From contig CM059432.1 in the NCBI GenBank assembly GCA_030390025.1, forward strand, positions 4,650,001 to 4,714,000: a DNA stretch of 64,000 bases. Direction: 5' to 3'. Below are positions 157-6,231 of the stretch, in pieces (the stretch's first letter is position 1; each line of letters opens with the position of its first letter). The position numbers were made by a program, and so were the translations under genes. Under the pieces are notes generated by a model. That model was not told the DNA's origin, did not search any database, and worked only from the letters and a program-made list of their open reading frames with translations. The stretch comes from Squalus acanthias (Eukaryota).

Positions 157-2482
157 ATGGAGACAGCCCTGAGACTGAGCGTGATCTTGATGTTGGCCGG
201 AACGGGGCACAGCAGGAGAGGGGACACCGAGTCGTCCCTCCTCTATGGCTGTACTGGGGGGGACGGACCCACTGTGACTAAGGGGGGTAGGAGGGGGGAC
301 ACAGACGGGATGGCAGCCTACTTCCACGAGGGAAGATGGCCAGGGTGGCTGGGGTCCAATTCGACGAAATACTCCAGCCACGCCGGGTTCACGTACGGGG
401 AGGCTTCCCTACCATGTCCCCAACTGAAGATCACAGCCACACGGGTTAGGGTGACCTTGGGCAAGCGCGTATGCTTAAGATGCAAGAGACACATTCCCCT
501 GGGACGGTGGTGGTGGCTTAGGAAGTTGAGTCAGGACAAGGGGAGCAGGTCAGCGGACTGTGAAAGACTGGGGAACGACACGTACCGACAGATCACGGGG
601 ACGAAGGGGGGAGTGGAAGTGTGCTGGAACAAGTGGTGGAAGGAGGAACAGGGGATTTATGTGTGTGTGTGGGGGTCAGAACGGATCTGCCCAGCGGGTG
701 TGTCGATTGCTTTCATACGGCAATGGCAGGATTCCGGGGCTGGTATGGGATGGGATCGGAGTTTGGATGCTTGCGTAGTCCCAGACCCTCCCAGCACAAT
801 AAATTCCACGGAACTGGTAGTGCACGATCGGAAGCCCTGCCCACAGCCCCACCGGTACAGGAGACAGAGGTAAGGTGTCCCACCACCACACCAGGCCCAG
901 GGAATGGTTTAGTTCTAGTCCTGAGCGGGAAGGTTTTATTCCAGGATGTACATTACGCAGCCGCGTCGGTCATCTTAAATTTAACCCGGGTGCAGCTGCC
1001 CGAGTGGTGTCCGAAGGAGACTGAGCAGTTTTACGAAGCCCTTATTAAAGAAATGTTCCGCCAATTTTTTGAGCTCACCTACAGGGATGTGAGTCGGGAG
1101 AAACTGTATGGCGTGGATGCGTACGATAGAGGCAATCCGGGTAGACAAAGGCGAGGGACGGTTAATGACATGGCCATGGGCTTTTAGCACGGGCACGTCC
1201 CTCGTCAATAGTATGGATGATATCCAGCTGCAGATGCAGATTAATAGTTTAAAGGACCAGCTGCGAAAGATACTGGGGGAAGGGAACAAGGTGGAAGGTT
1301 CGGAGCTAAAAGAAGACCAGGCGATGACCATTCATTTAAAAGAGGTCATCACTGAGCTGGAGACACACGCCAAGACCATCAACGATTTGATACGGGAGAA
1401 CAGGAATGCCTCGGCACAGGCAGCCAGAAGTGATGCGTGTGTGCTGTACGGTGCGTGGTTGCTAAACGAGGGACGCAGTAATCTGGAGGACTTACAACAA
1501 GGTCGCGTCCCATCGTGGGTTCGCAGCCGGCACCTCACAGCGCTCAGCCTGTATCATAATTCAATGAGCCCGTGTCAGCTCCGATTAGCTTCCGAAGCCT
1601 ACCCAGTCCCAGTTGATTGCGGACGGTCCAACCACACGGTTATGGGGATTGTACTGCGGATGCCGGTAATGGGCGGGTCACCGCAGCCAGTGCCGATATA
1701 CCGGGTCGATAACATTGGCGTCTTGAGGGACGGGGTGCATGTGCGGTATCATGGGGCCCCACCATTTGTTATAAAGTGGGAGCATGCCATGACCGGCACT
1801 GACCTCAAGGGGTGCCAGAGCAGGGGCGCACACGTGATATTGTGTCCCCAGCACCTGAACGCTTTCGATCGACCAGTGTGTGGGTTTGAATCGGAAAGTG
1901 CAGAGCCCATTAATTGCACCATGGAGGTGATGGCCCAGAGCCACGTTCCACCTCAGGTAGCACACGCGGGCGACGGGACGTACTGCGTCACGACAAGCGT
2001 GGACCAGTATCGGGTACACAACGACACTTGGTGCCCAGTCACCGATTCGACTTTCTGCTTCAAACCCCACACAGAAGTTCAAGTGGCGCAATAGCGCATC
2101 CTTCCCACTTCAGAGCCATCCACAGTACACCTCGTGGTAAACAACACGGTACAGAATCTGCAGCAGTACGTTACACGGTCCGGGTACGAGATACAGCTTC
2201 TGCCCGAACACCTCACAAAATTAATAAAAGCCGTTGAGCTGTCACAAAAACATTTTTACACGCTCGAACAGCGAAACCGGGACACGGGAGGAAATTAAAG
2301 GGATGATTTCCCCGCCCTGGTGGGACATTGGGTTAAATGTCGAGATCCCTCCATGGATCCGGGTATGTTCGCACGCTCTTGTAATTATACAGAGTTTGGT
2401 GGGATTGTACTTGTTACGGCTCTCCTGTAAAAAGCGAAGCAAGGCACTCCGAAGTCGTTGGCAGGCCCTGATTAAAGACTAA
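157..2482 (+). pseudogene. env: Envelope glycoprotein of ERV-A, frameshifted
   Basis: Signal peptide METALRLSVILMLAGTG, furin site RQRR/GTVNDMAMGF, heptad region LQMQINSLKDQLRKIL, Cys-rich ectodomain and TM segment WIRVCSHALVIIQSLVGLYLL. Spread over ORFs 157, 621, 1108 and 2234 (about 3 frameshifts plus a stop at 2092). Confidence 0.85.
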
Positions 2483-2662: not shown

Positions 2663-3732
2663 TGTAAGCATCAGCGCAGGCCCCAAGGATTTTTGTATCG
2701 GACATTTTTGTATGATTGTTACTGCTGATTGACCAGCAGCCTGTTTGGAGAAGATGGGAGGGGCCCAGGTGTTCGTGATGGACAGGAGATTGCAGCCAGG
2801 CCTACAAACTGATTACGGGAGAATGTCTGAGCAGACAGAGTTCTCTGGGAAACAATGGGCCCGGGTCGGTGACTCATACGGTAACGGGCAGAAGATGGAG
2901 GGCCATTGGAAACTAATGGGAAACCACTTAACCCGGGATCGGGTAAGAAGTGCAGCCCATCATCTGCCATTAACACTAGCAGCTCGATGGGATAGCCCCG
3001 AAAGGCGGGAAACCAGACAAAGAAGGGTGATTAAAAAGACATCACTGCAATACACAGACCTTAATGAACTTTTAAGGTATAAGAGAAGGCAGCTTTGGCC
3101 ATTCTCGCTCTCGCCTTCACGTGCCCTCATCTCTGAACCAAGAACCGAGCACTCTGTCCGGGACGGAGAGAAGAAACCACCACGAGCGACAAGAGCCTCG
3201 CCTTGCTCTTCGACTGTAGGAACGAACCTCGAAACTGGGACTTGGATACTGCATCGGCGATACGGAACCAGGAGACACGCTCTACACAGGGAGCAGCGAG
3301 CAAGAAAACGGACAATCGGGGTGAGCATTGTCCGAGCCCACGCATCCTTAAGACCACCGGTACTGTGTGAGGGGGTGTTGTGTGTCCCAACCAATCCAGA
3401 GGGGTTTAGTGGGGAGGTTCTGTGTGTATTATATAGTGTATGTTCCGGGGTTTGTGGGACAAGTCCATGTTATACTCTGTACAGCAACACAGTGTGATTT
3501 TAGGCATCTTAATACGAGACAGGGGCCTGTTCAACGGGCCAAGTTGTATTGTTGTACTGTTTGTTTTACGCCACCAGGCATTTTACATACTGGAGGCGGG
3601 TGTGTGTATTAACTTTATTAAACACCGTACGGTTGAGTCTGAAAAGCTTGTCTGTGTTCAAATCCTGTTCACCGTAATTCCTGTCGTCTGTAACTAAGTA
3701 GGAGAGGTGATTCGAACCACCAAGGCAAACCA
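2663..3732 (+). repeat. 3' LTR of ERV-A (about 1.07 kb; right end approximate)
   Basis: Starts TG 2 nt after the PPT; TATA-like GGTATAAG near 3076; ATTAAA near 3616; ends CA before CR1 sequence. Confidence 0.65.
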
Positions 3733-3849
3733 CCTGTTTATGCTCCACACGAGCCTCCTCCCTCCTCTCTTCATCTCACATTATCAGCATATCCTGCTAT
3801 TCCTTCCTCCCTCAATTTCTTATCTACTGTGATAATTAAGGGGGGCAGA

Positions 3850-4812
3850 GCTAGATAAGAAATTCCTTGAATGTAGGAAGCATGATTAAGAAATTTGCAA
3901 ATGATACAAAAATTGGCCGTGTGGTTGATAATGAAGAAGAAAGCTGTAGACTGCAGGAAGATAAGAATGGACTGGTCAGGTGGGTAGAACAGTGGCAAAT
4001 GGAATTCAATCCAGAGAAGTGTGAGGTAATGCATTTGGAGAGGGCTAACAAGGCAAGGGAATACACAATAAATGGTAGGATACTGAGAAATGCAGAAGAT
4101 CAGAGGAACCTTGGAGTGCATGTCCACAGATCCCTGAAGGTAGCAGGACAGACAGATAAGGTGGTTAAGAAGGCATACGGGATACTTGCCTTTATTAGCC
4201 AAGGCATAGAATATAAGAGCAGGGAGGTTATGCTTGAACTGTATAAAACACTAGTTAGGCCGCAGCTAGAATACTGCGTGCAGTTCTGGTCACCACATTA
4301 CAGGAAGGATGTGATTGCACTAGATAGGGTACAGAGGAGATTTATGAGGATGTTGCCAGGAGTGGAGAATTTTAGATATGAGGAAAGATTGGATAGGCTG
4401 GGTTGTTTTCTTTGGAACAGAGGAGGCTGAGGGGAGATTTAATTGAGGTGTATAAAATTATGAGGGGCCTAGATAGAGTGGATAGGAAGGACCTATTTCC
4501 CTTAGCAGAGAGGCCAATAACCAGGGGACACAGATTTAAAGTAATTGATAGAAGGATTAGAGGGGATTTGAGGAGAAATTTCTTCACCCAGAGGGTGGTG
4601 GGGGTCTGGAACTCACTGCCTGAAAGGGTGGTAGAGGCAGAAACCCTCATCACATTTAAACAGTACTTGGATATACACTTGAAGTGCCGTAACCTGCAGG
4701 GCTACGGACCAAGAGCTGGAAAGTGGGATTAGGCTGGAGAGCTCTTTGTCGGCCGGCACGGACAAGATGGGCCGAATGATCTCCTTCTGTGCTGTAAATT
4801 TCTATGATTCTA
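3850..4812 (+). mobile_element. CR1 LINE, 5'-truncated RT C-terminus plus 3' UTR
   Basis: KFANDTK, LYKTLVRPQLEYCVQFWSP, RRNFFTQRVVGVWNSLP; tail TTCTATGATTCTATG. Confidence 0.9.
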
Positions 4813-5156: not shown

Positions 5157-5986
5157 TTCTTCTTCTTAGGCAGTTCCTCAGTACCGAAGATGACTTGCTT
5201 CCACATTAAAAATTAGTTCTCAGGTGACTGATGACTCCAATGCGGGACCTACAGTCTCTGTCACAGGTGGGGCAGACGGTGGTTGAAGGGGCGGGTGGGT
5301 GGGGTGCTTGGGTTGACGTGCGCTCCTTCCGCTGTTTGCGCTTGGCTTCTGCTTGTTCCCGGCGAAGAGACTCGAGGTATTCGGCGCCTTCCCAGATGCT
5401 TCTCCTCCACTTTGTGCAGTCTTGGGCCAGGGATTCCCAGGTGTCGGTGGGGATGTTGCACTTTTTCAAGGAGGCTTTGAGGGTGTCCTTGAAGCGTTTC
5501 CTCTGCCCACCTGGGGCTCTCTTGCCGTGTCGGAGCTCCGAGTAGAGCGCTTGTTTTGAGAGTCTTGTATCAGGCATGCGGACGATGTGACCCATCCATC
5601 GGAGCTGATCGAGCGTGGTCAAAGCTTCGATGCTGGGGATGTTGGCCTGAGCGAGAACACTGACGTTGGTGCGCCTATCCTGCCAATGGATTTGCAGGAT
5701 CTTGCGGAGGCAGCGTTGGTGGTACCTCTCCAGTGCTTTGAGGTGCCTGCTGTACATGGTCCATGTCTCTGAGGCATACAGGAGGGCGGGTATTACTACT
5801 GCTCTGTAGACCATGAGCTTGGTGCCGTGTTTGAGGTCCTGGTCTTCAAACACTCTCTTCCTCAGGTGACCGAAGGCTGCACTGGCACACTGAAGGCGGT
5901 GTTGGACTTCGTCATCGACGTCTGCCCTTTTTGACAGTAGGCTCCCGAGGTATGGAAAGTGGTCCACGTTTTCCAAGGCTTTGTCC
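5157..5986 (-). mobile_element. RTE-clade LINE 3' segment with (GAA)n tail
   Basis: ORF 5206-6015: LENVDHFPYLGS, LLYASETW, QLRWMGHIVRMPD, C-terminal CPTC..H zinc finger; TCTTCTTCTTC tail. Confidence 0.9.
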
Positions 5987-6231
5987 GAGGTCGGGAGGAT
6001 CACAATGCATCCCACGAAACCCAGGCAGAGCGGACCTGCGGGAAGGAGGGAGGAGGAGAGTAGGAGTATGTTTGTGTGTGTGTGCTAGGCCGATGTAGCA
6101 GAGCCTGGTCTCCAATCGTCTTGGATCCCCTTGCCATTGGACCAAGACCTTGCTCTGTCAAGCCCATGTGGTAGCTGGTGTGCTGCGGCTACATCGCGTT
6201 AAAAGAATTCACACACAGGCATCTTCCACCC
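5987..6231 (+). mobile_element. RTE LINE 5' UTR, split from its ORF by ERV-B
   Basis: Removing the provirus and one CACCC joins this segment to TTTAAAATG of the RTE ORF at 17849. Confidence 0.65.

Follow-up and report, generated by a model that had tools for sequence, protein, structure and literature searches.

A broken envelope gene of Squalus acanthias belongs to an endogenous retrovirus family that very probably lies outside the lokiretroviruses and encodes a predicted paramyxovirus-F-type fusogen

The broken env gene described here lies in a 64,000-nt stretch of DNA, hereafter the window (G000:C8:4650001-4714000, within a 3.7-Gb genome). It is very probably the dead env of an endogenous retrovirus (ERV) outside the lokiretroviruses, one that likely falls in the grade of viruses like snakehead retrovirus (SnRV; class III, 'clade Huo') and that specified a predicted F-type fusogen with a probable Ig-like head. 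The original prediction had described a lokiretrovirus-like Env with an F-protein-like architecture instead of a gamma-type TM. The architecture is supported by profile and structure matches to paramyxovirus and pneumovirus F proteins. The loki-like identity is not: the element falls outside loki by its pol, Gag, primer-binding site (PBS), PR-RT spacing and fusion peptide, and also in the Env tree.

The env frame in the window is real, and the anatomy originally ascribed to it is accurate. The gene (157–2482; all features of the element are on the + strand) comprises ~770 codons in five pieces. Its frame, its breaks, its homologues and the fold of a natural unbroken relative identify it as the predicted precursor of an F-type, or class Ib, fusogen, and with 132 matching places in the genome the frame is not a chance one. 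It opens with a signal-peptide-like start (157–225), judged by eye, and similar starts are seen in relatives. A probable V-like Ig domain (418–675), recognized from profile matches and in the full model and putatively the attachment module, lies within an N-terminal extension of ~210 residues. The F2-like subunit (870–1154) runs from a CP..GP.NGL motif to the furin site RQRR (1143–1154), and is followed by a polar fusion-peptide segment with heptad repeat A (HRA, 1155–1410). The Cys-rich F1-like head (1411–2200) contains a helix with CxxYG, a GrVPsW motif and beta domains, and the gene ends (2200–2482) with heptad repeat B (HRB), a Trp-rich membrane-proximal PPWWD, a transmembrane segment (TM, ~2375–2430) and a short basic tail. 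RQRR is the sole furin-type site in the homologous env frame; a second candidate at 862–870 was rejected, as the Arg-rich run at 853–870, before a stop at 871–873, lies in an out-of-frame tail that the first break leaves behind. About 403 codons separate RQRR from the start of the TM, close to the ~400-residue Cys-rich ectodomain predicted, and ten Cys codons fall within 1183–2091. The reported lack of CX6CC and ISD motifs holds for the five env pieces and for the three forward frames of positions 1–2700, and CX6C is likewise missing from the five pieces. With no ISD or CX6CC and an ectodomain that is not short, a gamma-type Env was rejected.

The lesions, estimated beforehand at about four, are frameshifts near 838, 1180 (in the fusion-peptide segment) and 2285 (in HRB) and an in-frame stop at 2092–2094 (in the head). 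Breaks were called by comparing the window env with ten close natural copies, 92–96.5% identical to it, and the three frameshifts were seen against 9/10, 10/10 and 7/10 of these, respectively. Two features were absent from the original description: the N-terminal extension with its probable Ig domain, and the polarity of the segment after RQRR, which has a mean hydropathy of -0.29 to +0.39 in three shark copies vs. 1.82 in one natural loki.

Env is preceded by a pol-env intergenic stretch (1–156) and, just upstream of the window (G000:C8:4646726-4649998), by a pol with RT, tether, RNase H, H2C2 and rve that is interrupted by stops. On the other side, a polypurine tract (2652–2660), read from the sequence, is followed by the 3' LTR (2663–3735), which begins with TGT; its final bases are clipped or altered, and no target-site duplication can be recognized. 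A 228-bp remnant of the 5' LTR, 97.4% identical to the 3' LTR (differences at 5/227 sites), lies about 3.3–3.5 kb upstream of the window start. This remnant directly abuts pol, so the PBS, gag and pro have been deleted. Given four env breaks, the loss of gag, pro and PBS, and the stops in pol, this copy cannot work and is a dead example of its family. Just past the LTR are fragments of two LINE-type reverse transcriptase ORFs (3855–4732 on the + strand and 5206–6084 on the - strand), which we take to be CR1-like and RTE-like.

Pfam and PDB searches with single pieces of the window returned nothing significant. With a profile of 14 natural shark pieces, the best six of 11 PDB matches were parainfluenza F (E of 9e-4 to 6e-3), and this shark-only alignment was collinear across the F2 cysteine, the cleavage site and the head. 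A profile of 56 rows matched parainfluenza F at an E of 8e-6, followed by metapneumovirus F. The protein modeled was that of a natural unbroken relative (L015:1408-3675), with 65–69% core identity to the window's family. Its AlphaFold model has a pLDDT of 68.6 and a pTM of 0.46, with pLDDT below 50 in the fusion-peptide region. The Foldseek check that had been proposed came out in favor of an F-like fold: 228 PDB matches were obtained at E ≤ 0.001, with TM-scores of 0.2–0.3, and all 38 matches listed were paramyxovirus or pneumovirus F proteins, the best being 1ztm (E of 4.3e-10). In a VIA comparison, the relative's model aligned with postfusion Nipah F over 290 residues (Z of 12.2, rmsd of 5.3). 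The predicted model also has the nested DI-DII-DIII core built from both subunits by which class Ib is defined. The Env product of the family is thus predicted to be a paramyxovirus-F-type (class Ib) fusogen.

A viral structure library was headed by an unnamed protein (A0A384ZVF2), followed in order by WEHV1 Env (rank 2, E of 1.6e-14), mononegaviral glycoproteins, WDSV Env (rank 10, E of 1.1e-10), baculovirus F, paramyxovirus F and feline foamy Env (rank 38, E of 4.4e-5). No foamy Env chain was among the PDB matches listed, an absence that is uninformative. Matches to foamy or epsilon Envs had been put forward as grounds for refutation, which was mis-set, since foamy Env is itself described as F-like (PMC11468914) and the walleye Envs share the fold. 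Both the F proteins of paramyxoviruses and pneumoviruses and foamy Env, grouped as 'class Ib' in the same source (PMC11468914), resemble the shark Env in the predicted nested F2/F1 core, furin cleavage, HRA and HRB, and the TM, at 8–15% identity.

Where these proteins differ is in how a receptor-binding module is supplied. Paramyxovirus and pneumovirus F needs a separate attachment protein, and foamy Env inserts its receptor-binding domain (RBD) between the subunits, according to PMC11468914; the extra module of the shark Env is N-terminal. This extension probably contains an Ig-like domain. Its profile matches the Ig superfamily at E values of 4e-6 to 7e-4 (DIP-alpha, 4e-6; CD8a, 3e-4), and the Ig motifs of a B-strand Cys, a C-strand Trp and an F-strand YxC are present; the Pfam Ig_3 match is weak (E of 0.08–0.18). 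Within the full model, the N-terminal part matches BTLA with a Z of 8.7. Modeled in isolation it is poor (pLDDT 48, best Z 4.2), and this isolated model gave no fold match at E ≤ 0.001. By analogy, the extension is likely a receptor-binding head; among gamma-type Envs there are known cases of an IgV-like RBD at the N-terminus (bioRxiv 2024.03.17.585361). In the N-terminus of SnRV Env, the only sign of an Ig domain was a weak perlecan-Ig match (E of 0.12).

The family is large. A genome search, in which 130 of 8,816 candidates were scored, matched env in at least 132 places. The intact copies that the original prediction had suggested seeking do exist: 7 of 132 matches have an open frame of at least 740 aa and no stop within the match. 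Six of these seven were inspected, and four lie in gag-env elements without a pol ORF, one in a gag-pol-env element. Such pol-less elements (L014:5057-10000 with L015; L018/L019; L020; L016) are organized as LTR-gag-short ORF-env-LTR, their gag and env frames being long and open, and the LTR pairs of the three measured diverge by 1.1%, 1.1% and 3.9% (K2P). Their short ORF, past the gag stop, has a pro-like start and repeats part of the Gag coiled coil. These elements are likely non-autonomous satellites. Target-site duplications are 4 bp in 4/4 bounded elements checked (the ends of L014/15, L018/19, L020 and L022/23). Between natural copies, dN/dS was 0.06–0.22 in the Env core (13/21 pairs measurable, dS being saturated in 8/21) and 0.07–0.30 in the N-terminal part (15/15 pairs measurable), which places Env under purifying selection while the subfamilies diverged.

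In relatives of the window copy, from which the PBS is deleted, the PBS matches the 3' end of tRNA-Arg(TCG). Tandem arrays at G000:C26:38.99-42.2 Mb (L061-L063) have a ~1,623-bp unit that carries this primer tRNA, and the tRNA-Arg(TCG) pattern has 424 matches genome-wide. In contigs of four runs, no env splice joint was found on a related full-length copy; pieces of it were covered, which cannot show transcription. The genome also holds a second, divergent ERV family with 151 matching places (among them L044/L045, L047, L050-L053 and L019:5746-6501). Its Env core is ~25% identical to that of the first, its N-terminal domain is different, and its RT, 49% identical, groups with a Xenopus tropicalis ERV (100/98).

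We then asked where the pol belongs. Loki RTs carry the motifs NSPIWPVLKP..K and PFGY.NSPAEF. The shark RT has LDISNGFWS, QQYTWT.LPQGFH.SP.IFHQ and QYVDD, like the SnRV row of the alignment of Wang & Han (PMC7947760). QGFHNSP had no match in the motif comparison with loki RTs, and the loki RT pattern had none in the shark genome, although a search for an exact pattern is weak evidence. The window RT is 43% identical to SnRV, 48–53% to frog and coelacanth ERVs, and 36% to loki. As references we used two loki elements, SnRV, a WDSV-type genome and foamy genomes. The SnRV reference (L068, 10,688 nt) is 99% identical to P0171 and matches the SnRV row in the PMC7947760 supplement; L064 and L065, in contigs of a metagenome collection, are two nearly complete natural lokiretrovirus elements. 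The RT trees comprised two natural loki RTs and were built without class II and fish foamy-like rows, after removal of 23/59 rows (near-duplicates and surplus gypsy) or, in an earlier tree, of 8/123 rows for short coverage and all but 20 of the non-retroviral ones.

All five RT trees make loki the sister group of every other retrovirus and put the shark family across that split from it, with support for the non-loki clade of 96/96, 96/92, 100/98, 98/95 and 100/99. For a shark+loki grouping, AU tests returned p=0.036, 0.103 and 0.090 with the RT core (250 columns) and p=7e-5 with RT+tether (401 columns); for shark+foamy, the values were p=0.166 and p=0.01 on the same two regions. The RT+tether tree places the shark family outside foamy+class I (99/97). 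It falls in a grade with SnRV and with frog, coelacanth, turtle and ostrich ERVs, whose branching order is poorly supported (45/10), so that no shark+SnRV clade stands out; this grade matches clade Huo as described in PMC6001957.

The Gag of relatives has a coiled coil and one CCHC, the latter absent from 2/2 loki, and the PR-RT spacing is 206 in the shark family vs. 193 in SnRV vs. 599 in loki. Gag and pol share one frame across one stop in relatives (gag is deleted in the window copy). The upstream pol has a dual RNase H (tether and RH), which is common to all retroviruses and hence not diagnostic of loki, and PDB searches gave Pol about the same score against MLV RT as against foamy RT. A word-index protein search found only three Env relatives and five Pol relatives. 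Viral contigs contained no relatives of the shark RT, and two loki-motif matches in them proved to be phage genes and were dropped. An errantivirus or Ty3/gypsy element with an F-type env was rejected, the RT not being of Ty3/gypsy type and a second RNase H being present.

SnRV, in clade Huo, shares with the shark family its RT motifs, an Arg PBS, though Arg(ACG) rather than Arg(TCG), a Gag with a coiled coil and a single CCHC, a common frame for gag and pol across a stop, a short PR-RT spacer, a collinear F-type Env core and a polar fusion peptide. It differs in the N-terminal part of Env, ~500 aa with three RxRR sites vs. ~240 aa with one site. Loki (PMC7947760; L064, L065) shares an F-homologous Env with a signal peptide, one RxKR/RR site, heptads and a TM but no CX6CC, as well as the dual RNase H. 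In contrast to the shark family, it has a PFG in place of the PQG motif, another PBS and a hydrophobic fusion peptide; the N-terminal extension is a shark addition.

To what extent is this type of Env found elsewhere? A profile search of 1.84 billion proteins returned 85 Env matches, 20 of which are named and come from sharks, frogs of six genera, chicken (LOC422926), lamprey (loki-type Envs) and, as its glycoprotein, Sanxia water strider virus 4. The nearest named relatives are those of Rhinoraja, Pristiophorus, Chiloscyllium and Mustelus. Six motif-assigned loki-type Envs are among the 85 (E of 5e-7 to 9e-4), so the proposed homology to loki Env is real by profile, at ~15% identity. LOC422926 is ORF3 of Ovex1 (873 aa), collinear with the profile over 409 columns (HHalign 97%, E of 1.5e-11). 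Its identity as an envelope was called uncertain by its authors (PMC2717909). In HHalign, SnRV Env reached 96% and WDSV Env 89%, both above 500/500 shuffles with either profile, but the shark-only profile scored loki Env higher, at 32.9 bits, than WDSV at 20.2 or SnRV at 9.8, a ranking that speaks against the reading favored here. In the Env tree, shark, frog, SnRV and Ovex1 sequences group together (97/99) apart from loki (100/100), with an AU p of 0.01, long SnRV and Ovex1 branches, a profile seeded on shark sequences and a weak root (56/10). The Env and RT trees agree in placing loki outside.

Ovex1, as described in PMC2717909, is like the shark family in its SnRV-related RT, coiled-coil Gag and lack of CX6CC or ISD. 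Unlike the shark family, it is single-copy, LTR-less and conserved in birds, with a hydrophobic anchor at the N-terminus in place of a signal peptide; ORF3 is conserved across galliform birds (P0063 in chicken, and P0124-P0137). The walleye epsilonretrovirus Envs (WDSV, WEHV1) resemble the shark Env in their structural matches and a collinear profile match, but these viruses have a class I pol and a much longer Env. Epsilon Env was set aside as a 'distinct structure' in PMC3758190. One WDSV-type Env (L072:5962-9648) aligns end to end with the F-type profile at 31.5 bits vs. a shuffle maximum of 4.5. Several frogs hold many near-identical long F-type Envs, in clusters of 16 (Mantella) and 32 (Discoglossus), annotated as uncharacterized (P0012, P0020, P0031, P0035, P0058, P0121).

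The F-type Env could instead have been gained laterally rather than inherited from an ancestor, if in fish an SnRV-like gag-pol took up the env of a loki or an F/G of mononegaviral origin. We regard such a recombinant as unlikely, though deserving of attention. Anamniote retroviruses are described as swapping Env often (bioRxiv 2021.11.23.469661), the scores of loki Env and lispivirus-type glycoproteins come close to that of Ovex1, and the long deep branches and weak root of the Env tree leave room for it. However, SnRV, Ovex1, frog ERVs and WDSV all have this Env type, the Env tree repeats the RT tree in leaving loki outside, and identity to loki Env is only ~15%; a capture would have to be very old. 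That the element is a fish foamy-like or epsilon-like ERV, with an Env that is F-like for that reason, is very improbable. The ranks of WEHV1, WDSV and feline foamy Env in the viral library, the similar Pol scores and the RT-core test of shark+foamy agree with such a placement, but the family branches outside foamy+class I and shark+foamy is rejected on RT+tether, in trees and a sample that exclude fish foamy-like ERVs. Foamy membership was also rejected on the CCHC of Gag, on the shared gag-pol frame, and on Env, in which no foamy-type RBD separates the F2-like part from the cleavage site (PMC11468914). Finally, a true lokiretrovirus, the first from cartilaginous fish, is the most improbable of these readings: Env homology, the dual RNase H and two of three RT-core AU runs speak for it, but the dual RNase H is common to retroviruses, five trees and the RT+tether test place the family elsewhere, and RT motifs, PBS, CCHC, PR-RT spacing and fusion peptide all differ. 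The supposition that loki had not been reported from cartilaginous fishes agrees with Wang & Han, whose Fig. S1 gives 0/6 chondrichthyan genomes (PMC7947760).

For an intact member of the SnRV-like shark family, the predicted fold and the known biology of F and foamy Env suggest how Env may have worked. The precursor would enter the ER by its signal peptide, trimerize and be cleaved by furin at a single site, RQRR. The N-terminal part (the Ig-like extension, a Pro/Thr linker and an F2-like strand and helix) would stay on the F1-like part, probably held there by the conserved F2 cysteine. As there is no separate attachment gene, cell binding likely falls to the Ig-like module; the class Ib scaffold is described as taking receptor modules at its N-terminus or between its subunits (PMC11468914). 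The polar peptide after RQRR would then insert, HRA extend, and HRB fold back to form a six-helix bundle. We infer cleavage, disulfide, receptor role and fusion alike by analogy. Repeated insertion into the germline spread the family, the pol-less gag-env elements likely borrowing Pol in trans.

Wang & Han (PMC7947760) left four scenarios open for the origin of Env in loki and other retroviruses. That sharks, frogs, SnRV, Ovex1 and walleye viruses combine an F-type Env with a pol outside loki, together with the agreement of the Env and RT trees, favors scenarios in which this Env was already in the common ancestor, and F-likeness is no longer a hallmark of loki. We consider the chances about even that the F-type (class Ib) Env is the ancestral retroviral envelope, kept in loki, in foamy viruses, in the SnRV/Huo grade (the shark and frog ERVs, SnRV and the co-opted Ovex1 ORF3 of chicken) and in walleye epsilonretroviruses. 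Each group would have gained an attachment module of its own, in the shark family a captured Ig domain, and the gamma/beta-type TM would have replaced the F-type later. If so, Ovex1 ORF3, expressed in the bird ovary, would be an F-type fusogen that has been domesticated.

F-like Envs are already on record in loki, in foamy viruses and in errantiviruses (bioRxiv 2023.10.26.564294). Among the papers accessible to our search, none assigned an F-type Env to SnRV, Ovex1, walleye viruses or shark class III ERVs, though an earlier mention may exist. In their accessible parts, Viro3D (PMC12583693) does not mention walleye and snakehead viruses, a survey of anamniote Envs (bioRxiv 2021.11.23.469661) used gamma- and beta-type queries only, and PMC13709493, PMC8278194, PMC11521997 and PMC4131045 hold nothing on an F-type Env in these elements. 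A likely fold can now be assigned to three unexplained envelopes, those of SnRV, WDSV and Ovex1 ORF3, and is therefore testable. Sharks hold a large, young family of predicted F-type Envs, kept under purifying selection and carrying an added, probably Ig-like, head.
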